Shown in pieces: positions 17,612-64,000 of a stretch of DNA of 64,000 nucleotides. The DNA lies in contig CAZZPK010000003.1 in assembly GCA_964655995.1 (NCBI GenBank), positions 22,960 through 86,959 of the forward strand, in the 5' to 3' direction. The notes under the pieces are model-generated. The model saw only the letters and a list, made by a program, of their open reading frames with translations. It was not told the origin of the DNA and ran no database searches. A program made the position numbers and the translations under genes. The stretch's first letter is position 1. The number at the start of each line of letters is the position of its first letter. This DNA comes from an uncultured Candidatus Saccharibacteria bacterium (GTDB taxonomy: Bacteria; Patescibacteriota; Minisyncoccia; Phycocordibacterales; XYD1-FULL-46-19).

Positions 17612-17639
17612 AAGTTTTCTTTGCCCTGCCTTGCGGGGC

Positions 17640-17683
17640 TTTTTATTGACTAAATTTTAAAAAATCGGTAGGGTGGGGGAGGA
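17640..17683 (+). promoter_or_regulatory. 44-bp conserved upstream element (copy 1) with a TTGACT -35-like box and a G-rich tail
   Basis: tttttattgactaaattttaaaaaatcggtagggtgggggagga is identical to 18556..18599. Confidence 0.5.
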
Positions 17684-18496: not shown

Positions 18497-18555
18497 TCTG
18501 ACGTCACTCAAGTAAAAATTTACGTTCCCTGGTCCGAGTAAATTGGATTAGGGAA

Positions 18556-18599
18556 TTTTTATTGACTAAATTTTAAAAAATCGGTAGGGTGGGGGAGGA
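18556..18599 (+). promoter_or_regulatory. 44-bp conserved upstream element (copy 2)
   Basis: Identical to 17640..17683. Confidence 0.5.
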
Positions 18600-21999: not shown

Positions 22000-22575
22000 A
22001 TGATAAAACAAGAGTCAAGTGAGAGATGGTGGTATCGGTTAATTAAGGTCATTTTTATAACAATGATCCTTTTTTCCTTACTAATTCCAGCTATAATTTT
22101 TCTTGAAAGTAAACCAGTTCTTGATAGATATGAAAGTCGCTTTAGTTTAAAGTGTGCTGACGGTAGGTTCCGAGGTGATTTTGATGGTTCTGATTTGGCG
22201 TACTATGATCTTAAATCTTTTGATAATTCTTATTACAATAAAGATAAATTTACCAATCTAGATAGAATGGCAAAGATTGCTTGCCATTATCAAGAAACTG
22301 GCGATGAATTAAAACCAATTGTAGAGTCAGAAAGTACTTTTGTCCCAACGGAAAAAAATTATGAGATTTTCTTGAGAAAACCATCTTATAGTAATTCGTG
22401 GGTAGAAACAATTAGCTACACAGTCTTAGCGTTTTTAGGGGTAATTCTATTTTTTAGCTTATTAAGAGCAATTTTCCTTTACATTATTTTTGGTGAAAAT
22501 TTTGGCAAAAATCTAGTATTTATATTTTGTTTATTTAAAAGTAAAAGAAAAATCATTGTTGAAAAACAAAAATAG
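22000..22575 (+). CDS. hypothetical two-TM membrane protein (AT-rich island)
   Basis: 191 aa with hydrophobic helices near both ends; about 30% GC. Confidence 0.45.
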   Translation: MIKQESSERWWYRLIKVIFITMILFSLLIPAIIFLESKPVLDRYESRFSLKCADGRFRGDFDGSDLAYYDLKSFDNSYYNKDKFTNLDRMAKIACHYQETGDELKPIVESESTFVPTEKNYEIFLRKPSYSNSWVETISYTVLAFLGVILFFSLLRAIFLYIIFGENFGKNLVFIFCLFKSKRKIIVEKQK

Positions 22576-22608
22576 GTATAAAAATAATAAATTAACTTAA
22601 AAGCTAAT

Positions 22609-22788
22609 ATGAATAAAGAATTTAGAGAAATAATAACAGGGTTAATAATTTTCGGTATAGTAATTCTATTAGCGTGGTTCTTGTTTGGTAGAGATATAGA
22701 ACCAGATTTATCTTCTAATTATAGTGGTTCATTAGAAGATCAATATTATGAGGGTGAAGGGTCTGGTCATCCGCTTTGGAATAATTAG
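22609..22788 (+). CDS. small single-TM protein (absent from the supplied ORF track)
   Basis: MNKEFREIITGLIIFGIVILLAWFLFG..., 59 aa, inside the AT-rich island. Confidence 0.3.
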   Translation: MNKEFREIITGLIIFGIVILLAWFLFGRDIEPDLSSNYSGSLEDQYYEGEGSGHPLWNN

Positions 22789-22836
22789 AGACCTCCGTCA
22801 AGGCGAGGCCTTGGCGCTGGTACGGTATGAACTTCT

Positions 22837-23592
22837 ATGATGAATATTGGAAGAAATGATCTGTGCCTATGTGGAAGTAATAAAAAATTCAAAAAGTGCT
22901 ATGGTGCAGTAAATAGTACTTGTTCCATTTTCTTGAAAGAACAGTGTCAAAAATTCATAAACGAGCACAACGAAAGAGAAAAATTTGTTTTTAGGTTTTT
23001 TAATGAGGTTCTTGAAGATACAAATGTAATTCTTCTCAAGAATAAAGAAGGAGATGACAAACTTCCTTTGCGGGTACAAATGATCATTGCCTTCAGTTTG
23101 ATAGATGTTCTTGGCAGTTATTGGTATGAGTATTTAGGTAAAACAGGAAAGACGAGCGAAAGAGCTCAAAAATGGTACGAACAGTTCTGTTTGAACGATA
23201 AAAATCCTAATCTGCTAACCCCTCAAGACTGGTCAAGAATTTCTAGTGATAGGTTATATCAATTTAGGAATTCACTCGTTCATTTCTTTGGTCTTTCAGA
23301 AAAAAGCGATGGGATTTACTTTGCATTAGCACCTAATAACCTTCCTGACGATAAACACAAGGATTGGCAAAAGCAGTTTAGTAAGAAAGGTGATGAGTCT
23401 TTTATCATCAAACCAGCTAACTTTTACGACCTAATCAGAGAAGGAGCGGTTTTGATGCTTAATGAGTGGTCGGAAGTTATCAAAAATGCTCAAACCAGCC
23501 CAGAGCATGAAAAAAGTCATATTGAGGGGATCGAGAGGATTTTTAACAAGATAAACAAAGAGGGTGCAGTCAAAGTAATGCAGGAAAAATGA
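22837..23592 (+). CDS. SEC-C motif protein with an uncharacterised C-terminal domain
   Basis: The N-terminal GRNDLCLCGSNKKFKKCYG matches the SecA C-terminal metal-binding (SEC-C) motif; the remaining roughly 220 aa are unrecognised; low GC. Confidence 0.55.
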   Translation: MMNIGRNDLCLCGSNKKFKKCYGAVNSTCSIFLKEQCQKFINEHNEREKFVFRFFNEVLEDTNVILLKNKEGDDKLPLRVQMIIAFSLIDVLGSYWYEYLGKTGKTSERAQKWYEQFCLNDKNPNLLTPQDWSRISSDRLYQFRNSLVHFFGLSEKSDGIYFALAPNNLPDDKHKDWQKQFSKKGDESFIIKPANFYDLIREGAVLMLNEWSEVIKNAQTSPEHEKSHIEGIERIFNKINKEGAVKVMQEK

Positions 23593-36442: not shown

Positions 36443-36464
36443 TTATCATAGCTATTAATTATAT

Positions 36465-36500
36465 TCCTAACTTGAGACGGTCGTCTGAGATTAGGAAAGA
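36465..36500 (+). repeat. direct repeat copy 1 carrying the AGACGGTCGTC motif
   Basis: tgagACGGTCGTCtgagATTAGGAAAGAG, compared with 37058..37090 aaACGGTCGTCaaaaGTTAGGAAAGAG. Confidence 0.5.
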
Positions 36501-36501
36501 G

Positions 36502-37107
36502 CTAAGAAAGATTAAATATTTTCTTTAACCAGCTATCATTTTCTAAATAAGATACTTCCATATACAACACCTCTTTGCCAATATGATAGTTAGCCTTTAA
36601 TAGGGCTACTACTTCTTGGCAATCGTATGGATAAACCCAAACACTATTTTGGAGCCTTATTAAGCCTAAGTGCTGAAACCAAGCTCGCAATTTGTTTCTA
36701 GTGGATCGTTTCCATTCCTTAATATCAAAAATAATAATTCGATATTTACCATCCCAGCGTTTTGGTTTATTTATGGTTAATTTTTCTAACTCATATTCTT
36801 TTAACTTAATTTTGCCACTTTTGGTCAATCGGACAACTTTCTGTCTTTTACTATTATTTTCTATTTTAACTAAACCCTGTTTCTCTAGGCGGCCAACCAC
36901 TTGATTAATGTAATTCCTTTTCTTTGATTCTTGTTTTGGTAGAAAACGGAGTAATTTTAGGCAATTTGGTGCCACTACTGCTAAAGCAATAATCCCAGTT
37001 AGGCCAATAACACTAAGAATTATTTGTTGATAGTCTGAATTTGGTGATCTCATACCTATTCCTAAGTATAAACGGTCGTCAAAAGTTAGGAAAGAGGTGT
37101 TTGACAA
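36502..37107 (-). CDS. membrane-anchored PaaX-like wHTH regulator with a Cas2/VapD-fold middle domain, lacking the PaaX C-terminal domain
   Basis: N-terminal TM, wHTH (QVVGRLEKQGLVK...VVRLTKSGKIKL), then RWDGKYRIIIFDIKEWKRSTRNKLRAWFQHLGLIRLQNSVWVYP. This resembles the E. coli PaaX segment PPWDGKWLLLLSEGLD...LIWQGFG and the Cas2 consensus (YDI...R.Q.SVFE). AT-rich. Confidence 0.5.
   Translation of the reverse strand: MSNTSFLTFDDRLYLGIGMRSPNSDYQQIILSVIGLTGIIALAVVAPNCLKLLRFLPKQESKKRNYINQVVGRLEKQGLVKIENNSKRQKVVRLTKSGKIKLKEYELEKLTINKPKRWDGKYRIIIFDIKEWKRSTRNKLRAWFQHLGLIRLQNSVWVYPYDCQEVVALLKANYHIGKEVLYMEVSYLENDSWLKKIFNLS
37058..37090 (+). repeat. direct repeat copy 2 carrying the ACGGTCGTC motif
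   Basis: See copy 1; together they bracket the PaaX-like gene. Confidence 0.5.
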
Positions 37108-42224: not shown

Positions 42225-42251
42225 AATGTCGTAAAATAAGGTTTTTTAAAT

Positions 42252-42287
42252 TATACCAAGTAGCCGCGATCGCGGTCAGATGGTATA
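42252..42287. repeat. REP-like palindrome R1 (TATACCA...CCGCGATCGCGG...TGGTATA)
   Basis: tataccaagtagCCGCGATCGCGGtcagatggtata; the inner 12 bp are a perfect palindrome. Confidence 0.6.
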
Positions 42288-42385
42288 GTTGACAATATTG
42301 GTAAGGGTATGCTATAATGGTAGGTAGAGTTGTTTGAAAGTAAATAACACGGAACCATAATCCCCAAAGGGAGAGGAGATTGAAG

Positions 42386-42811
42386 ATGAGTTGGATTTTG
42401 GCGGTGGCACTTTGCTTTATACTTTGGAGTACCTACGCAATCCCGGGCAACTTAGCCGAGAAGACGCACGGGGTCTCGGTCAATATGCTTTTTGAGACCT
42501 TGGCGTTTATTGGGGTGACGCTTCTCCTCGGTAGTAAGATTATCGAGGGGTTACCCAAAGTTACTTTGAGCTCAGCCGCTCTCGCCTCAATGATGGGGGC
42601 CGGATCGGCGCTCGGATTTTACTTTTTTCTCACCGCGCTTAGTTTGGCGCCGGGAACAAAAGGTATTGTCCTGGTCGTTTTGATCGCCGGGGTCACCTTC
42701 CCGGTGCAGAGTGCTCTCTTCAGCTTTTTTGGAGAGGCGCTGAGCACCCAGCAGTGGGTAGCGATCATTGGCATGGGGGCGTCCCTCGTCCTCTATAACT
42801 GGAAGTTTTAA
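42386..42811 (+). CDS. small four-TM membrane protein (DMT/EamA-half-like)
   Basis: Ribosome-binding site gggagaggag; four hydrophobic helices; bracketed by R1 and R2. Confidence 0.45.
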   Translation: MSWILAVALCFILWSTYAIPGNLAEKTHGVSVNMLFETLAFIGVTLLLGSKIIEGLPKVTLSSAALASMMGAGSALGFYFFLTALSLAPGTKGIVLVVLIAGVTFPVQSALFSFFGEALSTQQWVAIIGMGASLVLYNWKF

Positions 42812-42840
42812 ATTCCAGCATTTACTCACATATTTCCACT

Positions 42841-42886
42841 CCGCACATGTTGCTTCCGGCAACCTCTGTGCGGTTTTGTTTTTTAA
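42841..42886 (+). terminator. intrinsic terminator after the 42386..42811 gene
   Basis: ccgcaca-tgttgcttccggcaacc-tctgtgcgg followed by ttttgtttttt. Confidence 0.55.
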
Positions 42887-42888
42887 AT

Positions 42889-42924
42889 TATACCAAGTAG
42901 CCGCGATCGCGGGGAGATGGTATA
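42889..42924. repeat. REP-like palindrome R2
   Basis: tataccaagtagccgcgatcgcggggagatggtata; its 5' 34 nt, including the ttttttaaat lead-in, are identical to R1. Confidence 0.6.
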
Positions 42925-43072
42925 GTTTTGTTTTTTATTAATTCCGGTTAATCTTGATTGTTCCACTTGCTCACGATCGTATAAAAGTGGAATAATCAGT
43001 AAGGAGAGGTGGTTGATTTTTGTGGTTTTTTGTTTAATAATGTCTTTAGATTAACCTAGAAGGAGACAAGAG

Positions 43073-43336
43073 ATGTCAAAAATAAATGAGAAGAGACTCA
43101 AACTTTTAACACCCCGTGAATTTGTTTTTATGCGACAGTTGAAAAGAGGTTTAATAACACCTCTTTCTGATGATGTTGTCGCTTGTAAATTAGCTTCTCT
43201 GGGCCTCATAACTTTGCGGACGGGAAAATTAACGGACATAGGAGCACACATTCTGTGGGAAGAAGAACTTGAGCAAAGGCCGTTACTTAAGCTAATTTAC
43301 TTAATTTACGGCCCACTTTTTTGCAGGGTCTCTTGA
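43073..43336 (+). CDS. hypothetical small protein (AT-rich)
   Basis: Strong ribosome-binding site gaaggagacaagag ATG; its 3' end overlaps the fmt stop convergently. Confidence 0.35.
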   Translation: MSKINEKRLKLLTPREFVFMRQLKRGLITPLSDDVVACKLASLGLITLRTGKLTDIGAHILWEEELEQRPLLKLIYLIYGPLFCRVS

Positions 43337-44163
43337 GTGTTGAATTGCTCCCAACTCATCTCGCGTCTACCTTCGGGGACGACGCGGTCGAGGACGAGCT
43401 CACCTTGCGAGAGGTGGGCTTTTATTATTTTTAAACGGATGGATTTGCCGTTTTTGGCGACAAAGGTAAAAGCCCCGGGGCGGGGAGTAAAGGCGCGGAT
43501 TTTTTGGTAATTGACAATTGGATTATCCGCTAAATTAATCTCCGCTTCTGATTTATCATATTTTTTAGTAAAAGTGGCTTTGGTGTGATCTTGCTCTTGA
43601 CCGGCAATTTTGCCGGCTAAGTAATCCGGCAAAATATCAGCGATCATTTCCGCGCCGCGTTTAAATAAAATGTGACCCAGCTCGCCGGTGGTCTCGGTGG
43701 TTAAAGTATATTTCTCTTGCGCAATTATCGGCCCATGATCAAGCTCCGGATCCACTCGGAGTATAGTCACGCCCGTTTCCGTCTCGCCGGCTAAAATCGC
43801 CGACTCGAGCGGCGAGGGCCCGCGATACTTGGGCAAGAGCGAGGGGTGGATATTAAGCGCGCCGTGTTTGGGTAAATTTAAAATTTCAGCCGGGATAATT
43901 TTGCCATAGGAGGCGACGATAAATAAATCCCATTCTCGCTCCGCCAGTTCCGGCGGAGTAATTTTTAAACTGGCCGGTTGGACGAGGGGCCAGTTGTGCG
44001 CTTTGACATATTGAGCCAGCGGCGGGGGAGTTAAAGCGAGTCCGCGACCGGCCGGCTTGTCGGGAGTACTTATCACTAAACCAGGCGTTAAACCGCGTTT
44101 AATTAAAATATCTAAAGCAGTGACGGCATACTCGTCGGTGCCTAAAAAAGCAAATTTAGTCAT
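43306..44163 (-). CDS. fmt: methionyl-tRNA formyltransferase
   Basis: KFAFLGTDEYAV N-terminus and the HPSLLPKYRG motif. Confidence 0.85.
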   Translation of the reverse strand: MTKFAFLGTDEYAVTALDILIKRGLTPGLVISTPDKPAGRGLALTPPPLAQYVKAHNWPLVQPASLKITPPELAEREWDLFIVASYGKIIPAEILNLPKHGALNIHPSLLPKYRGPSPLESAILAGETETGVTILRVDPELDHGPIIAQEKYTLTTETTGELGHILFKRGAEMIADILPDYLAGKIAGQEQDHTKATFTKKYDKSEAEINLADNPIVNYQKIRAFTPRPGAFTFVAKNGKSIRLKIIKAHLSQGELVLDRVVPEGRREMSWEQFNTQETLQKSGP

Positions 44164-49364: not shown

Positions 49365-51326
49365 ATGAGACGCTTTCTTTTTTTACTTAGTCTGTTTATT
49401 TTGATTTTTGGCGTGGCGGCCGATAGTTGGGCAATTACCGACTCGATCAATGTCAGTGGGACGGTAACTACCGAGGATGATGGTGGTGGTAGTGATCCGG
49501 TTTACGGCTGTACCGATCCGGCCGCGACTAACTATAATCCTGACGCTACTGCTAGTGATGGTAGTTGCCAGTATCCCACTTTAGTGCCGACGGTTATGAA
49601 TTTTGAAGCGGTTTACGACGAAGACAATGATGAGGTCGATTTAACATGGGTTAATCCTAGTTTTGCCGAATTTGCCGCGGTGCGCATTGTCCGCTCTACC
49701 ACTTTTTTCCCTAACTCGCCCAATGAGGGGACTTTAATTTATGATGGACCGGGAGAAGAAGCGGTGGATGATAATGTGAGTCTGGGCAGCACTTATTATT
49801 ACACCGCTTTTGTCCGTTCCACCGCTAACGAGTATTCAGCCGGGGCGGTGGCGCAGGTCACTATCCCAACTGAGCCGCCGTGCGAGGGCGATGAGTGCGA
49901 TCCAGCCGATCCGTTTGAGGATTTGCCCGAGGGAGGCGGCGGCGGATTTGAAATCGGCGGATTTATCTTTTTCCAACCTGGAGAGGAGCCGCAATATCTG
50001 CGGGCCGGCGGCGAGACCATTTTGCTCCGCGCCGACAAAACTACCACTATTTATTTGCCGTACGATCAGGCGCCGGAGGTGTTAAAAACCATCGGCGTTA
50101 CGGTGATGAGTCCAATTAATCCTAAAAGCAGCTTTTCTTTCCTGTTGCGATTGACTCCAGATAAAAAAGGTTATGCCGCGACGATCGCGCCGCTCGGTGC
50201 GAGCGGCAAGTATCCGGTGGCTATCTATGTGATCAACTATCAAAATCAGAGCCTCAAGCGTTTGACCGGCAATTTGGAGGTCCAGGGTGGTGCGGCTATG
50301 GTTGGACTGGTGCCGGCGACAATTATTGAGCAAACCGTGGCTCCATTAGTGGTGGGGACCGGTCTACTCATCGGCTTAGGCCAGGCCTTGGTGCCGCTGG
50401 CCGCGGTTACTTCCTGGTATGATATTTACTTGATTATTTTGCGGGCTCTGGGCGCGCTCTCGGGCTACTTTGGTCTGCGTAAAAAATACAAGCCGTGGGG
50501 AACGGTTTATGATGCGGTGACCAAACAGCCGATTGATCCGGCTTATGTCACTATCGAGGCGAATGGCAAAGAGATCTCTAGCGCCATTACCGACATTGAG
50601 GGGCGGTATGGCTTTTTCCTCCCACCTGGCACCTATACTCTTAAGGCCGGCAAGACTCATTATCAATTCCCCTCCGCTAAGTTGGCGGGGCGTTCGGCCG
50701 ACGAGCTCTATAATAATCTCTATTTTGGCGAGCCGTTTGAGACCAAGCCGGATGAGGTGATTGACCGCAACATACCCCTCGATCCAATCGGTTTTGACTG
50801 GAATGAGTTTGTTAAAAGCCAGTCCGCCACCTTGGTGGCCAATAGCAAAAAGGAGTTAAGTCGAGCTCGGATTCATAAAAGCATTTACGCCGTGGGCTTG
50901 CTTACCGCCGTGGGCAGTGCTGTATATACCCCCAGTTGGCTCTCATTTAGTTTATTTGGGGCCTATGTTTTGCTGGCGATTTTTGAGCGAGTTTGGGGGA
51001 TTAGGCGCCATGTGCGGACTATTACTTGGAGCGATACTAAATTGCCGCTACCGTTTGCTATTGTTCGCGTCTCGATCCCGGATTTGAATCAGGAGGTCAA
51101 GCATGTGGTGGCCGATCAGCTGGGGCGCTTTTACGTCTTAGTGCGACCGGGGGTTTACAGTTTGTCGGTGGAGGAGAAGCAAGCCGACGGCTCTTACAAA
51201 AAAGTGTATCAGTCGCCGCCAACCAACTTACCCCGCGGTACTTGGGACAGCGACCTTAAACTCAATCGTAATGTCTTACCACCCGAGCCAGCGTCAGTTA
51301 TTTCTACTCCTAACTTGACTAAATAG
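49365..51326 (+). CDS. large surface/membrane protein (signal peptide, FN3-like domain, two carboxypeptidase-regulatory-like beta-sandwich domains, several TM helices)
   Basis: FN3-like segment (DLTWVNPSFAEFAAVRIVRS...YYYTAFVRS) and CarbopepD_reg-like segments (GTVYDAVTKQPIDPAYVTIEANGKE...GRYGFFLPPGTYTL; GRFYVLVRPGVYSL). Confidence 0.55.
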   Translation: MRRFLFLLSLFILIFGVAADSWAITDSINVSGTVTTEDDGGGSDPVYGCTDPAATNYNPDATASDGSCQYPTLVPTVMNFEAVYDEDNDEVDLTWVNPSFAEFAAVRIVRSTTFFPNSPNEGTLIYDGPGEEAVDDNVSLGSTYYYTAFVRSTANEYSAGAVAQVTIPTEPPCEGDECDPADPFEDLPEGGGGGFEIGGFIFFQPGEEPQYLRAGGETILLRADKTTTIYLPYDQAPEVLKTIGVTVMSPINPKSSFSFLLRLTPDKKGYAATIAPLGASGKYPVAIYVINYQNQSLKRLTGNLEVQGGAAMVGLVPATIIEQTVAPLVVGTGLLIGLGQALVPLAAVTSWYDIYLIILRALGALSGYFGLRKKYKPWGTVYDAVTKQPIDPAYVTIEANGKEISSAITDIEGRYGFFLPPGTYTLKAGKTHYQFPSAKLAGRSADELYNNLYFGEPFETKPDEVIDRNIPLDPIGFDWNEFVKSQSATLVANSKKELSRARIHKSIYAVGLLTAVGSAVYTPSWLSFSLFGAYVLLAIFERVWGIRRHVRTITWSDTKLPLPFAIVRVSIPDLNQEVKHVVADQLGRFYVLVRPGVYSLSVEEKQADGSYKKVYQSPPTNLPRGTWDSDLKLNRNVLPPEPASVISTPNLTK

Positions 51327-51343
51327 ATATAGGGGTGTATAAT
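51315..51343 (+). promoter_or_regulatory. perfect-consensus sigma70 promoter (TTGACT, 17-nt spacer, TGn TATAAT)
   Basis: ttgact-aaatagatataggggtg-tataat. Confidence 0.6.
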
Positions 51344-51367
51344 TAAAGGTAGAAGGGAGGTGAAGAT

Positions 51368-51601
51368 ATGCTTGGTTGGGAAATAGTTTTTGAAGATAGC
51401 GCGAAAAAAACAGAAAGGATGAAGGTTCCTGGCGGTTGGTTGGTTTTAACTAGCACATTTTTACCACCGACTGATCTTCATAAGCCTGTTCCTCCAATTG
51501 CTCAGACTTTTCTGCCTGATCCGAAACACAATTGGCAGAGCAAATACTGGAGAGAATATGGCGAACCACCACCGTTAGATAACGAACCTGTGCAGGACTA
51601 A
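51368..51601 (+). CDS. small hypothetical protein (cassette 1)
   Basis: 77 aa with ribosome-binding site gggagg; its own promoter and terminator. Confidence 0.4.
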   Translation: MLGWEIVFEDSAKKTERMKVPGGWLVLTSTFLPPTDLHKPVPPIAQTFLPDPKHNWQSKYWREYGEPPPLDNEPVQD

Positions 51602-51603
51602 TT

Positions 51604-51658
51604 CCCGCCCGGAGACAACGACCCAAATCGTCTGTCACGAGGCGGGTTTGTTGTTTTT
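51604..51658 (+). terminator. conserved intrinsic terminator module, copy A
   Basis: cccgcccggagacaacgacccaaatcgtctgtcacgaggcggg followed by tttgttgttttt. Confidence 0.6.
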
Positions 51659-51736
51659 GCCTAAAATGTAAACTAATTAGACGGTCGTCAAACTATTTCA
51701 CATTCTCAATCGTAAACGGTCGTGAACAGTTGGGAT

Positions 51737-51765
51737 GTTTAGAATTTGACAAGATAACTTTATGG
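51737..51765 (+). promoter_or_regulatory. perfect-consensus sigma70 promoter (TTGACA, 17-nt spacer, TGn TATAAT)
   Basis: ttgaca-agataactttatgggtg-tataat. Confidence 0.6.
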
Positions 51766-51806
51766 GTGTATAATCAAAGTTAGAAGTGTTAACAGGAGGA
51801 GCGGAC

Positions 51807-52046
51807 ATGAAGAAAATTGTCTTGTTTTTTGTGGTAGTAATTCTGGTAATGGTGTTTTACACTGGTATTGAAAAGGAGCCAGCTTACCAGTATCACATTA
51901 CCACCTGGGATGGTCGTGAGGCTATCGGTAAATTGAATCGCGATCAAACCTATACATTTTTTCGATTTTATAGGGTGGGAGAAGTGGTTTACATCGACCA
52001 GGAGATTGCCACTTTTCCAGCTGCAGAAGCGGCCAAACTCCATTGA
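51807..52046 (+). CDS. small single-TM protein (cassette 2)
   Basis: Ribosome-binding site aggagg; MKKIVLFFVVVILVMVFYTG... Confidence 0.4.
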   Translation: MKKIVLFFVVVILVMVFYTGIEKEPAYQYHITTWDGREAIGKLNRDQTYTFFRFYRVGEVVYIDQEIATFPAAEAAKLH

Positions 52047-52106
52047 CCCGCCAACGGACAACGACCCGAATCGTCTGTCGCGAGGCGGGTTTGTTGTTTT
52101 TATTTT
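52047..52106 (+). terminator. conserved intrinsic terminator module, copy B
   Basis: cccgccaacggacaacgacccgaatcgtctgtcgcgaggcgggtttgttgtttttatttttc; about 90% identical to copy A. Confidence 0.6.
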
Positions 52107-52161
52107 TCTATATTTTAGTCAAGTTGCCCCCAAGGCCATAATCGGCCATAATGGCGGGGAA

Positions 52162-53175
52162 ATGGCTATCAACTTTAAACCTAAGTTGGGCATCGATTTG
52201 GGGACGGCTAACACCCTGGTTTTTGTGCCGGGGCAGGGGATAGTTTTAAACGAGCCCTCGGTGGTGGCGATCTCCGAGATCGATAATAAGGTGGTGGCGG
52301 TAGGGGTGGAGGCCAAAGAGATGGTGGGCAAAACGCCCGACAGCATCATCGCTTACCGGCCGATGAAGGATGGCGTCATTGCCGATTATCGCGTTACCGA
52401 GGTGATGCTTAAATATTATATTTCCAAAGCGCTCGGCAAATGGAATATTTTTAAACCCGATGTCTTAGTCTCGGTGCCGGCCGGCGTCACCTCTACCGAG
52501 CGGCGCGCGGTGATCGAAGCGGCGGTTAAAGCCGGCGCTAAAAATGCTTATGTGGTTAAGGAGCCGATTTTGGCGGCGATTGGCGCGGGCATACCCATTT
52601 ACGAGGCGCATGGCCACATGGTTGTTGACATTGGCGGCGGTACCACCGATGTGGCGGTAATTTCTTTGGGCGGTATTGTCGCCTCGACCTCGGTCAAGTA
52701 TGCCGGCAATAAAATCGATCAGGCGATTGCCGATTACATCAAAAAAACTTTCAATTTGGCAATTGGCGACAAAACGGCCGAGGAGGTTAAAATCGCCATC
52801 GGCAGCGCGGTGCCGGTAGAGGAGGAGCTGGTTTACACTATTAAAGGGCGCGACTTTATGACCGGCCTGCCGCGCTCGGTAGAGGTTAAAACTAATGAGA
52901 TTTGTCGGGCCATCGACAATGAGCTCCGCGAGATGATCAAGGCGATTAAAACTGTCTTCCATGACACGCCGCCCGAGCTCTCGTCCGACATTATTGACCG
53001 GGGCATTACCATGACCGGCGGCTCGTCCCAATTGCGCCATTTGCCCGAGCTGGTGTATCGCCGTACCGGCGTTAAGGCGGTGTTGGCCCCCGACCCGCTC
53101 TATTGCGTGGTTAAGGGGACGGGCATTGCGCTTGAGCATTTGGATACTTACAAAAAAAGCATTATCTCAAAGTAA
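52162..53175 (+). CDS. mreB: rod shape-determining protein MreB (paralog 1)
   Basis: GIDLGTANTLVFV and the actin-fold motifs. Confidence 0.85.
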   Translation: MAINFKPKLGIDLGTANTLVFVPGQGIVLNEPSVVAISEIDNKVVAVGVEAKEMVGKTPDSIIAYRPMKDGVIADYRVTEVMLKYYISKALGKWNIFKPDVLVSVPAGVTSTERRAVIEAAVKAGAKNAYVVKEPILAAIGAGIPIYEAHGHMVVDIGGGTTDVAVISLGGIVASTSVKYAGNKIDQAIADYIKKTFNLAIGDKTAEEVKIAIGSAVPVEEELVYTIKGRDFMTGLPRSVEVKTNEICRAIDNELREMIKAIKTVFHDTPPELSSDIIDRGITMTGGSSQLRHLPELVYRRTGVKAVLAPDPLYCVVKGTGIALEHLDTYKKSIISK

Positions 53176-55539: not shown

Positions 55540-55582
55540 GTACTTTTTGACCAAAGTCGGTTTTGGGTTAAGATAGGAGGAT

Positions 55583-56836
55583 ATGTTGCAATCCAAGCTG
55601 TTTACCAAAGTCCGCCGAGAGGACCCCAAAGACGAGCTGGCTAAAAACGCCAAACTCCTGATCCGCGGAGGTTTTATTGCCAAGTCGCTGGCGGGGGTTT
55701 ATGTGCTCTTGCCTTTGGGCTTGCGGGTGCTCGATAAAATCAGTCAGATTATTCGCGAGGAGATGGACAAAATCGGTGGCCAGGAGCTCCGTTTGGCCGC
55801 GCTCCAGGATCCAGCGGTGTGGCAGGCCTCCGGCCGCTGGAGCGACGAGGTGGTCGACAATTGGTTTAAAACCAAATTAAAAAATGATACCGAGCTCGGT
55901 TTGGGTTTTACCCACGAGGAGCCACTGGCCAAATTGATGGCTGATCATATCCAGTCATACCGCGACCTGCCGGCGTATGTCTATCAAATCCAGACCAAGT
56001 TCCGCAATGAGGCGCGGGCCAAAAGTGGCATTTTGCGCGGGCGCGAGTTTTTGATGAAGGATTTGTACTCATTTAATGTCGACCAGGCCGGCCTGGACGC
56101 TTTTTACGATCAAGCCAAAGAGGCTTATCGACGAGTGTTTGACCGGGTGGGCATCGGGGCGCAAACTTTTTTAACTTTTGCTTCAGGTGGTACCTTCAGC
56201 AAATATAGCCACGAATTCCAAGCGGTATGCCCGGCCGGCGAGGACACCATTTACTTGTCGCGCGATAAAGAGATCGCGATCAACGAGGAGGTTTACGGCC
56301 CTGATGTTTTGGCCGAACTTGGTCTTGAGGAACAAGAATTGGTTAAAGAGACGGCGATCGAGGTTGGTAATATTTTTAAATTAGGTACCAAATATTCTGA
56401 GGCTCTGGGTTTGACTTACAGCACCGAGACCGGCGAGCGCCTACCGGTGGTGATGGGCAGTTACGGCCTAGGGGTAACGCGGCTGCTTGGCACTATTGCC
56501 GAGTTGACCGGCACCGATAGCGGCCTTAATTGGCCCAAGGCGGTGGCACCGTTTAAAGTCCATTTACTTGCTTTGGGCAATGATGAGGCGGTACACGCCA
56601 AGTCTCGCGCTTTATACGAAACGTTGGTCGCCCAAGGGGCAGAAGTGCTTTTTGATGACCGCGAACTTAGCGCCGGGGAAAAATTTGGCGATGCCGATTT
56701 GATTGGCATTCCAGTGCGCTTGGTGTTAAGTGCCAAAACCGCCGCGCTTGAGGCGGTGGAGTGGTTTGACCGCTCTCAAGGCAAGACGGAGTCGGTGCCC
56801 ATTAGCGAGGTACCGGCCCGCATTTTAGCTTTATGA
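55583..56836 (+). CDS. proS: prolyl-tRNA synthetase (short form)
   Basis: IRGGFI...AGVYVLLPLG and class II motifs. Confidence 0.75.
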   Translation: MLQSKLFTKVRREDPKDELAKNAKLLIRGGFIAKSLAGVYVLLPLGLRVLDKISQIIREEMDKIGGQELRLAALQDPAVWQASGRWSDEVVDNWFKTKLKNDTELGLGFTHEEPLAKLMADHIQSYRDLPAYVYQIQTKFRNEARAKSGILRGREFLMKDLYSFNVDQAGLDAFYDQAKEAYRRVFDRVGIGAQTFLTFASGGTFSKYSHEFQAVCPAGEDTIYLSRDKEIAINEEVYGPDVLAELGLEEQELVKETAIEVGNIFKLGTKYSEALGLTYSTETGERLPVVMGSYGLGVTRLLGTIAELTGTDSGLNWPKAVAPFKVHLLALGNDEAVHAKSRALYETLVAQGAEVLFDDRELSAGEKFGDADLIGIPVRLVLSAKTAALEAVEWFDRSQGKTESVPISEVPARILAL

Positions 56837-56853
56837 TTAAACGCTGGTATGAA

Positions 56854-57888
56854 ATGTTTTCCCACGATCTGGGGATCGACTTGGGCACAGCCACCACCTT
56901 AATTTACGTTAAGGGGCACGGTATTGTCTTGCTTGAGCCCTCGATTGTGGCTTTAAATCAAAAAACCGGCCGGGTGGTGGCGGTGGGGGCCGATGCCAAC
57001 AAAATGATCGGCCGGACGCCGGCGCACATCAGCGCGGTTAAGCCACTCTCCGGCGGCGTGATCTCCAATTTTGAGGTGGCCGAGGAGATGCTCGCTTATT
57101 TTATGAAAAAGGCCGTGGCGCAAATACCCGGTAAAATATTTTTCCGCCCGCGGGTGGTGATCAGCGTCCCTTCGGGCATTACCAATGTTGAGCGTCGCGC
57201 AGTGCGCGACGCGGCGCGCAATGCCGGCGCCCGCACCGTCCATATTATTGAAAAGCCGATGGCCGCCGCTTTCGGCGTCCGTTTGCCGGTGCATGATCCG
57301 GTGGGGACGATGTTGGTAGATATCGGCGGCGGTACCGTCGATATTGCGGTGTTGTCCTTGGGCGGTATCGTCAAGTCGCGCAATCTCCATGTGGCCGGCG
57401 ATCATCTTAATCAGGATATTATTTCTTATATCCGGGACGAGTTTAAAATTTTATTGGGCGAGCGGACGGCCGAGGATGTCAAAATGGCCATTGGCTCGGT
57501 GATTAAGGGCAAAGAGCCGGAGGAGGCCTCAATTCGCGGCCGCGATCTGGTGACCGGCCTGCCGCGCGAGGTTATCGTTACCGACAGCGATATCCGCGAG
57601 GCGATCATGCCCTCGGTTAATTTATTAATTGAGGCGATCAAAGAGGTGTTGGAGACCACGCCGCCGGAGGTGATCGCCGACATCATGCATCGAGGGCTCA
57701 TTTTAGTGGGTGGCGGGGCTTTGTTGACGGGTCTCCCTGCATTGCTCGAGAAAGAGCTTGGCCTGCCGGTAATCCTGGTTGACGAGCCGACGACGGCCGT
57801 AGTCCGCGGCACCGGAGTTATCCTTGAGGATATTAACGCTTATCGTGATATTCTACTTGATAATGAAGACCAATTACCAGCGCGATAA
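56854..57888 (+). CDS. mreB: rod shape-determining protein MreB (paralog 2)
   Basis: GIDLGTATTLIYV and the actin fold. Confidence 0.8.
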   Translation: MFSHDLGIDLGTATTLIYVKGHGIVLLEPSIVALNQKTGRVVAVGADANKMIGRTPAHISAVKPLSGGVISNFEVAEEMLAYFMKKAVAQIPGKIFFRPRVVISVPSGITNVERRAVRDAARNAGARTVHIIEKPMAAAFGVRLPVHDPVGTMLVDIGGGTVDIAVLSLGGIVKSRNLHVAGDHLNQDIISYIRDEFKILLGERTAEDVKMAIGSVIKGKEPEEASIRGRDLVTGLPREVIVTDSDIREAIMPSVNLLIEAIKEVLETTPPEVIADIMHRGLILVGGGALLTGLPALLEKELGLPVILVDEPTTAVVRGTGVILEDINAYRDILLDNEDQLPAR

Positions 57889-62580: not shown

Positions 62581-62636
62581 TATTTGTTTAAAAACTATAC
62601 CATCTAGCCGCGATCGCTGGCAGATGGAATAATTTA
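62581..62636. repeat. REP-like palindrome R3 plus shared flank (55-bp unit)
   Basis: aaactataccatctagccgcgatcgctggcagatggaataatttaaaacaataaa, identical to 63693..63747. Confidence 0.65.
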
Positions 62637-62660
62637 AAACAATAAACCAGCTAGTTTGCA

Positions 62661-63692: not shown

Positions 63693-63747
63693 AAACTATA
63701 CCATCTAGCCGCGATCGCTGGCAGATGGAATAATTTAAAACAATAAA
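63693..63747. repeat. REP-like palindrome R4 plus shared flank (55-bp unit)
   Basis: Identical to R3. Confidence 0.65.
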
Positions 63748-63756
63748 TATTTAATA

Positions 63757-63808
63757 AAACAACAAACCCGCCTCGTAACAGACGATTTGGGTCGTTGTCG
63801 CTGGCGGG
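63757..63808 (-). terminator. conserved intrinsic terminator module, copy C (reverse orientation)
   Basis: The reverse complement ...cccgccagcgacaacgacccaaatcgtctgttacgaggcgggtttgttgtt matches copies A and B; it lies immediately 3' of the partial minus-strand CDS. Confidence 0.55.
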
Positions 63809-63812
63809 TGGT

Positions 63813-64000
63813 TTATGTGGTTGTGGGTTTAGAGAAAGACTTTTTTATTTCATCAATTATGCATTCAATTGAATCAATTGAATTGCTGTCAATTTGTATG
63901 GTTTGCCCTGTTTGCCAAACATAGTTCATTGCCCAGGTATCCAGATTTGAACGAACCCACTCCTGTACTCGTTCAGGGTGATTGATCAATGTTTCCAGCA
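63813..64000 (-). CDS. partial CDS (C-terminal 62 aa; 5' end beyond the window), AT-rich
   Basis: Open frame from the window edge to the TAA at 63813..63815 (...IDEIKKSFSKPTTT*). Confidence 0.3.
   Translation of the reverse strand, partial: LETLINHPERVQEWVRSNLDTWAMNYVWQTGQTIQIDSNSIDSIECIIDEIKKSFSKPTTT

Follow-up and report, generated by a model that had tools for sequence, protein, structure and literature searches.

Two small-gene cassettes with homologous promoter and terminator ends beside mreB in a Patescibacteria genome: probable moron-like insertions

Why should two tiny and unrelated genes, lying one behind the other between a large surface-protein gene and mreB, begin with much the same promoter and end with nearly the same terminator? 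The question is raised by a 64-kb stretch of the genome of an uncultured Candidatus Saccharibacteria bacterium (contig CAZZPK010000003.1), which we call the window; all positions given without a locus name are positions in it, and + is its forward strand. In our opinion, which we hold with moderate confidence, the two units are horizontally acquired, self-contained accessory cassettes similar to the morons of phages, and their homologous promoter ends (P) and terminator ends (T) come from a mobile, probably phage-linked, pool. The parts on which this view rests are listed below; ORF stands for open reading frame and GC3 for the G+C content of third codon positions.

51315 to 51343, + strand: promoter P1, with -35 TTGACT at 51315-51320, a 17-nt spacer and -10 TATAAT at 51338-51343
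51356 to 51360, + strand: Shine-Dalgarno sequence GGAGG of ORF1, 7 nt 5' of the ATG
51368 to 51601, + strand: ORF1, 77 aa, GC3 0.36
51604 to 51658, + strand: terminator module T1, outer stem CCCGCC/GGCGGG, inner stem GACAACGA/TCGTcTGTC, then UUUGUUGUUUUU
51746 to 51774, + strand: promoter P2, with -35 TTGACA at 51746-51751, a 17-nt spacer and -10 TATAAT at 51769-51774
51795 to 51799, + strand: Shine-Dalgarno sequence GGAGG of ORF2, 7 nt 5' of the ATG
51807 to 52046, + strand: ORF2, 79 aa, GC3 0.42
52047 to 52101, + strand: T2, abutting the stop codon of ORF2 and lying between the P2 unit and mreB
63754 to 63810, - strand: T3, the third copy of the module, 3' of a third tiny gene
63813 to 64000, - strand: 3' part, with the stop codon, of that gene (ORF3); the full protein (P0003) has 84 aa and GC3 0.35, and its start lies beyond the window

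A preliminary description of this DNA, made from its letters alone, had noted a near-identical terminator of about 55 bp behind both ORFs, and this is indeed what is found: T1 and T2 are 89% identical over 55 nt. It had further placed a third copy in reverse orientation at the end of the window, which is also correct, except that the gene in front of this copy is not a partial one as had been stated, but a complete 84-aa ORFan that starts beyond the window. The other pairs of T copies are 93-98% identical over a core of 44-49 nt. T1, T2 and T3 begin 2, 0 and 4 nt past a stop codon, each in the sense of its gene, and each forms a long bulged hairpin (-21 to -24 kcal/mol, z about -3) that is followed by the U-rich tail UUUGUUGUUUU. 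A G+C-rich hairpin, a U-tract, the sense strand and a start 0-4 nt past the stop codon are the sequence characters of an intrinsic terminator, and all three copies have them; we infer that T is an intrinsic (Rho-independent) terminator and that it terminates transcription.

Is T simply the terminator that this bacterium uses everywhere? With up to three mismatches allowed, its 23-nt core has exactly three matches in the 64 kb (none expected, from 100 shuffles), the 20-nt 3' arm with the U-tract likewise has exactly three with none expected, and a search of the window with a covariance model of T adds no complete copy to these three. Thus T trails three of about 56 genes, and all three are small and have a low GC3, a property of only seven of the 56 (P = 0.0013). 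Hence T is not a generic terminator, and the case that the preliminary description had set against its own reading, a terminator with no link to small ORFs, is not what the window contains.

Could T be a selfish palindromic repeat, of the kind of repetitive extragenic palindromes (REP) or miniature inverted-repeat transposable elements (MITE), which acts as a terminator only incidentally and has the small ORFs as bystanders? Other families of repeated intergenic hairpins do exist in the window (D3 and the ACGGTCGT hairpins, described below), and a Logan contig, L041, which carries a remnant of T, breaks exactly inside this remnant, a hint of a multi-copy sequence. A selfish repeat would hardly be expected to sit, in three cases out of three, 0-4 nt past a stop codon, in the sense orientation and only behind small ORFs of low GC3. 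It also lacks the usual marks: outside the hairpin itself no inverted repeats are found at the termini, the junctions show no target-site duplications, and no RAYT or transposase gene is among the scanned ORFs of the window. Furthermore, an independently moving terminator repeat leaves the shared promoter module unexplained. We consider this explanation unlikely, although it deserves a hearing.

The preliminary description had also allowed that T could be a regulatory RNA structure, in other words a cis-acting attenuator or riboswitch-like leader that controls the genes downstream. The hairpin is indeed unusually long and highly conserved. Against this, Rfam gives nothing relevant for 51200-52200 even at E <= 10 (in the whole window only three tRNAs reach the gathering score), the copies abut stop codons, and the genes that follow them (ORF2, mreB and a 307-aa ORFan) are unrelated. 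The promoter of mreB lies 3' of T2 and is kept in relatives that have no T, and no alternative antiterminator fold is evident. In our opinion, a regulatory RNA is extremely improbable here.

The second shared part is the promoter. P, like T, recurs as a direct repeat (431 bp apart for the one, 443 bp for the other). The P1 module reaches to about 51355 (GGGTGTATAATtAAAGgTAGAAG) and the P2 module to about 51786, and their likeness exceeds the two hexamers: 33 of 41 positions are identical from -35 to +12, and 21 of 23 from -14 to +9, compared with 17-25 of 41 between the cassette promoters and the other consensus promoters of the window. The -35 hexamer of P1 falls inside the final codons (N-L-T) of the upstream 653-aa gene, which we call S. 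The TTGAC(T/A)-17-TATAAT promoters were thus described rightly from the start, but not their TGnTATAAT register: the TG directly abuts TATAAT (GGGTGTATAAT), and the promoter scanner returned 'TG before second: no'. Nor are such perfect promoters peculiar to the cassettes, since three more exact TTGAC-N18-TATAAT sites precede other genes. The GGAGG ribosome-binding sites ahead of both ORFs are real, and both times lie 7 nt before the ATG. That these are highly expressed genes, as had been proposed, may be supposed from the consensus signals only.

Taken together, these parts suggest how a cassette may work. Each would be a transcription unit of its own, in which the sigma70-type promoter P starts an mRNA with a short leader that is translated, by virtue of a strong Shine-Dalgarno sequence, into a protein of about 80 aa. 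Transcription would stop at T, directly at the stop codon, and would be kept from running on into the next cassette or into mreB. We are fairly confident that each cassette is such an autonomous and insulated expression unit, its promoter and terminator activity being predicted.

What lies between these ends is a different matter. The bodies of ORF1 and ORF2 do not align at the DNA level, where their similarity is that of background, and the proteins of ORF1, ORF2 and ORF3 show no pairwise similarity, so that the description of ORF1 and ORF2 as unrelated is right. Homologous ends with unrelated ORFs between them mean that P and T act as the constant part, and the ORF as the variable part, of one family of cassettes. 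The ORFs have in common a foreign composition: GC3 is 0.36, 0.42 and 0.35 in ORF1, ORF2 and ORF3, compared to 0.61 +/- 0.055 in 49 other genes of the window (minimum 0.47) and to 0.55 and 0.67 in the two genes that flank the cassettes.

For ORF1 the origin can be traced further. A word-index search returned only self-matches for all three ORFs, while an exhaustive phmmer search with ORF1 gave 52 remote homologues. These make up a family of proteins, about 60 aa long, that share the invariant motif WE..T.R.KVPGGWLV...FVPDP.H.W; ORF1 has every invariant residue. PHROG 14288, a phage protein family of unknown function, is matched by 23 of the 33 aligned family members, ORF1 counted among them, with a best E of 1.8e-7 (ORF1 by itself gives E = 0.036), and 30 loci of the family lie on IMG/VR viral contigs. 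One of the viral homologues stands in a run of small genes, beside a gene whose translation looks ligase-like by eye. ORF1 is a real coding gene, and because of these relatives, the invariant motif, the PHROG matches and the viral loci we place its origin in the phage gene pool.

The other two genes are less informative. For ORF2, neither sequence nor structural relatives were found; its AlphaFold2 model has an N-terminal, transmembrane helix (residues 2-21) and then a four-stranded beta meander. The models are single-sequence ones, with a predicted local distance difference test score (pLDDT) of 76 for ORF2 and 68 for the other model. No relatives were found for ORF3 either. Foldseek against BFVD and PDB returned no match below E = 0.2, and the PADLOC, Pfam and PDB profile searches with the cassette proteins were all negative. 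The suggestion that the cassettes carry toxins, bacteriocin-like peptides or immunity proteins finds no support in these searches, nor does a function in defence, and ORF1 belongs instead to a phage-borne family. What can be retained of the preliminary picture of mobile or duplicated expression cassettes is its structural part, namely promoter-ORF-terminator units with shared ends and unrelated small accessory genes.

Is it conceivable that the two units arose on the spot, from a tandem duplication of one promoter-ORF-terminator unit whose coding part then diverged quickly or was replaced, or with ORF2 born de novo? The direct repetition of P and T at nearly the same distance is what a duplication would leave, the -35 region of P2 (AATTTGACA) resembles the S-gene tail, from which P1 takes its own -35, and ORF2 has no homologues. 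On the contrary, ends that are 80-96% identical around ORF bodies of 230-240 bp at background similarity are not easily obtained in this way, ORF1 has homologues in phages, T3 stands 12 kb away behind a third unrelated gene, and the GC3 is foreign in both ORFs. We therefore regard a local duplication as quite improbable.

If the cassettes came from elsewhere, the corresponding site should look different in relatives. Four syntenic loci were found via members of the MreB cluster; at the nucleotide level, their flanking genes and those of the window have 65-79% identity. The MreB of the window shares a 90%-identity cluster with the Candidatus Vogelbacteria protein MBI2482363.1, which places the organism, as Vogelbacteria-like, among the Parcubacteria of the candidate phyla radiation. 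The locus L040 is GCA_016188295.1. Only one other contig has the cassettes (L001), and it is identical to the window, so it offers no polymorphism. The features that define the site are these.

49365 to 51326, + strand: gene S, for a surface or membrane protein of 653 aa (Pfam domain CarboxypepD_reg), ending PNLTK-stop
51291 to 52120, no strand: block without counterpart in L007 and L008 (BLASTN), replaced by other DNA in L005 and largely missing in L040
52124 to 52152, + strand: promoter and leader of mreB (TTGCCC, 17 nt, CATAAT); mreB itself is 52162-53175

The synteny of the S gene is kept in L005, L007 and L040, and the mreB promoter and leader, which form the right edge of the insert, are kept in all relatives. 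BLASTN homology to L005, L007 and L008 ends at 51290/51291 and restarts at 52121. In L007 and L008 the site is empty, with 39 bp from the S stop codon to mreB. In L005 (9589-9980) it is occupied by an unrelated insert of about 390 bp. By eye, this insert can be seen to carry a Cys-rich ORF on the minus strand (about 77 aa), equipped with both a promoter (TTGACC-17-TAAAAT) and a terminator hairpin of its own. The S | mreB site is thus a hot spot that has repeatedly received small transcription units independent of their neighbours.

L040 shows a third state. Its S protein ends PNLTQ-stop, and this shared PNLT(K/Q)-stop tail means that the TTGAC(A/T) used as the -35 of P1 belongs to the tail of the S gene. 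In L040 and L041 the S tail has TTGACA, and its stop codon is joined directly to GAGGCGGGTTTGTTGTTTTTATT, which agrees with the 3' part of T2 at 23 of 23 positions, compared with an identity of only 65-77% in the flanking genes. From the L040 remnant the -10 element, an ORF and the inner hairpin are all missing, and it folds no better than shuffled sequences (z = -0.4). Farther downstream, L040 shares ATTAGACGGTCGTCAAA (17 of 17) and ATTTTAGTCAAGTTGC (16 of 16) with the window. The simplest reading that fits this arrangement is that a member of the same cassette family has lost its inner part by deletion, in which case the modules would have been kept, or exchanged, far more faithfully than the genes around them. 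With an empty site in two relatives, another insert in a third and a remnant in the fourth, the idea that the cassettes are insertions is well supported.

A further difference between the relatives lies a little downstream. An extra minus-strand gene of 268-283 aa is found between rseP and proS in L005 (13403-14254) and L007 (6016-6822); it is missing in the window (55547-55568) and in L040.

How would such cassettes move? We return here to the explanation that we favour, the moron-like accessory cassettes. The P and T modules could double as short portable homology, by which cassettes are gained, lost and swapped through general recombination. They probably serve in this way, but our confidence in this component is weaker than in the insulated expression unit.

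Several observations weigh against the explanation as a whole, and we list them here together. T1 is marginally nearer to T3 than to its neighbour T2, so nothing points to a recent event involving the two neighbours. As homologues are lacking for ORF2 and ORF3, only ORF1 has been shown to originate from phages. The 'scar' in L040 could instead be an ancestral terminator of low strength. The viral scans, for which T was represented by its inner stem, turned up neither a phage nor a plasmid as donor of T or P: a 21-mer scan with ACAACGACCCNAATCGTCTGT over GTDB genomes, JGI metagenomes and IMG/VR gave only chance matches without the outer stem, and the P module and D3 had no matches in the viral scans. 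This inner-stem probe is missing from the L040 remnant, and diverged members of the family would escape it. Finally, the numbers of T and P copies refer to a 64-kb window of one genome and not to the spread of the modules through that genome.

Each small ORFan unit of about 440 bp is followed by a near-identical imperfect palindrome, which recalls the gene cassettes of integrons. Are the hairpins then site-specific capture sites, like an attC cluster without integrase, at which circles insert at T? The core consensus of attC sites, R'' (RYYYAAC) and R' (GTTRRRY), stands at the ends of the attC palindrome. On inspection T lacks these cores (RYYYAAC...GTTRRRY): its ends are CCCGCC and GGCGGG, and the sole AAC, in AGACAAC, has no GTT partner. 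The scanned ORFs of the 64 kb include no tyrosine recombinase of the IntI or Phage_integrase type, each cassette has a strong promoter of its own, and T3 is 12 kb off on the opposite strand. An integron proper was rejected because the window contains neither attC cores nor an integrase. Nevertheless, several window genes do lie between direct repeats of one hairpin family, one of these pairs being 55 nt long and 100% identical, and these families have to be considered before the idea is judged.

The family D3 is a 55-nt palindrome with GCGATCGC, whose members form strong hairpins (z -3.7 to -6.9). One pair, 42248-42302 and 42885-42939, brackets a 143-aa membrane ORF. The other, 62592-62646 and 63693-63747, is the identical pair just mentioned; it brackets the 307-aa ORFan, which has a low GC3, and comes within 8 nt of T3. 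The first pair belongs to a block of 1.1 kb between hpf and fmt (42225-43337) that is missing in L005 and L040. Besides an 87-aa ORF it contains the D3-flanked 143-aa ORF, which comes with a promoter (TTGACA-18-TATAAT) and a terminator of its own. This block is a second insertion hot spot. More generally, regulatory or hairpin modules (D3, D9, D15) are directly repeated on the two sides of other single genes in the window, which supports the view of the modules as constant ends of accessory cassettes.

The next family consists of intergenic hairpins with an invariant ACGGUCGU apex and a covarying basal stem of 8 bp. Copies are found at 36460-36501, 37055-37096, 51664-51705 and 51699-51740 of the window and at 1708-1749 and 9849-9890 of L040. 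Two of these form the following feature, directly behind the first cassette.

51664 to 51740, + strand: ACGGTCGT-apex hairpins in the spacer between T1 and P2, at 51664-51705 and 51699-51740, the first of which contains ATTAGACGGTCGTCAAA

A weaker match, 42956-42997, scores best on the minus strand; the ACGGTCGT-core copies are on the + strand. In the alignment of the stem 89% of the cells are paired, in comparison with 64% in shuffles and 27-56% in slid controls, and both sides have changed in 8 of 11 pairs. Rfam has no match for this hairpin. The copies adjoin accessory or window-specific genes, and their positions are kept in L040 (about 72% identical).

One of the genes next to them encodes a PaaX-like protein, in which a winged helix is combined with a Cas2-like domain (36502-37053, - strand, GC3 0.28), and is bracketed by ACGGTCGTC hairpins with the identical arms TTCCTAA/TTAGGAA. 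This protein might recognise the hairpin, or the gene might be another inserted cassette. Elsewhere, a promoter-like module of 49 nt (TTGACT...GGGGGAGGA) flanks pyrF in two copies, 17635-17683 and 18551-18599, that are 96% identical; the second precedes a small Cys-rich ORF (18615/18633-18824). Two other identities for repeats in the window were considered and rejected: GCGATCGC occurs only six times, which does not agree with the context of cyanobacterial HIP1, and a pair of DNA uptake sequences inside the terminator does not agree with its three copies in 64 kb.

Given these families, there are two ways to save a site-specific mechanism. If they are integron-like sites, each of three hairpin families would require a recombinase of its own; together with the absent cores and integrase, this makes us regard the integron-like explanation as quite improbable, no better than local duplication. 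Alternatively, T, the D3 palindromes (GCGATCGC) and the ACGGUCGU-apex hairpins could be sites for recombination in an as yet undescribed way of capturing cassettes, which CPR bacteria would use without an integron-type integrase, with accessory genes entering as circles at a resident hairpin. If true, this would explain why at least four single genes of the window are bracketed by direct repeats of one hairpin, and why intergenic sites that bear hairpins differ between relatives. We grant a dedicated cassette capture a small probability, mainly because of the ACGGUCGU hairpin.

To which known systems, then, do our accessory cassettes come closest? A moron is a single extra gene with its own promoter, a factor-independent terminator and a deviating GC content, as described for phages of the HK97/HK022 type; it lies between genes that are adjacent in related genomes, and its product is small and often membrane-associated (PMC3594210). 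The similarity is considerable. ORF1 and ORF2 each have a promoter and a terminator around one gene, known here from the sequence, their GC3 deviates from that of the flanking genes, and the insert is absent from the same position in L007 and L008. Two points do not fit. Firstly, homologous promoters and terminators that are common to two or three units are outside the definition of a moron. Secondly, morons belong to phages, whereas the cassettes stand among the housekeeping genes of a bacterium, a surface-protein gene on one side and mreB-holB-frr on the other, with rseP, proS, lysS, fmt and def also among the neighbours. By Pfam, the window as a whole is a housekeeping stretch, with miaA, parB, relA/spoT, topA, dprA, dnaX, pyrF, uvrB, pyk and hpf, and further with fmt, def, mreB, holB, frr, rseP, proS, a second mreB, mreC, greA and lysS. 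Pfam found no integrase, transposase or phage structural gene in the sizeable ORFs that were scanned across the 64 kb. A prophage was considered and rejected, as the gene content is of the housekeeping type and phage structural or integrase genes are absent from the 64 kb.

The promoter early stem-loop (PeSL) elements of T4-type phages supply what the moron concept lacks. These are repeated sigma70-like promoters and stem-loop terminators that flank ORFans in plastic regions of the phage genomes (PMC2839356, PMC4122927). The repeats are thought to mediate the insertion, deletion and replacement of the intervening ORFs, which has been partly demonstrated (PMC2839356), and the motif begins at the stop codon of the upstream gene (PMC2839356, PMC4122927). 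Our locus likewise combines repeated strong promoters with stem-loops, has T at the stop codons of small foreign ORFs, and occupies a site that is plastic, as it varies among four relatives. It differs in that PeSL is one compact composite motif, whereas T1 and P2 are separate, 87 nt apart, with a spacer that is not repeated. It also lies on a chromosome rather than in a phage, and three copies of T and two of P are seen. Recombination between PeSL motifs would create indels or mini-circles; for the cassettes, the fusion of a -35 part to the 3' half of T in L040 is indirect evidence of such recombination. In our opinion, the locus works like the moron and PeSL systems and is a member of neither: it is not part of a phage or prophage, and T and P are not joined as in PeSL.

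Two further comparisons are instructive. Like the cassettes of integrons and of clusters of attC sites lacking integrases (CALINs), our units are short, mostly ORFans, and are each followed by a similar imperfect palindrome; unlike them, they have no attC cores, no integrase in the window and promoters of their own, and the copies do not form one co-oriented array. Like REP sequences and bacterial interspersed mosaic elements (BIME) or Correia-type repeats, T is a repeated palindromic intergenic sequence with terminator-like properties; unlike them, it has a very low copy number in the 64 kb and is strictly tied to stop codons, those of small foreign genes, and no transposase, terminal inverted repeats or target-site duplications were found.

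Two features of the surroundings should be mentioned for completeness. The window has two MreB paralogues, 52162-53175 and 56833-57888, which are 4.7 kb apart and are kept as a pair in all relatives examined; the second is followed by mreC, an mreD-like gene and pbp2. The strongest compositional island of the window lies at 22000-23592 (GC 0.30-0.35) and encodes an ORFan of 191 aa and a protein of 251 aa that has a SEC-C motif (GC3 0.23 and 0.35).

What does all this mean for the organism? The locus neatly illustrates an idea that is already known, and does not introduce a new kind of system; current ideas are not overturned, and the moron/PeSL concept is extended to a chromosome of the candidate phyla radiation (CPR). 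Genomes of CPR bacteria, or Patescibacteria, are small and poor in recognisable mobile elements, and the route by which they gain strain-specific genes is poorly understood. For this route the locus offers a concrete and testable picture, in which tiny foreign genes, at least one of them from the phage pool, would arrive as ready-to-express, insulated units, and would land in a recurrent intergenic hot spot beside essential genes. The constant ends of these units could be both expression signals and recombination handles. The P and T modules may also be of practical value, as natural and compact expression parts for organisms that are still without genetic tools.

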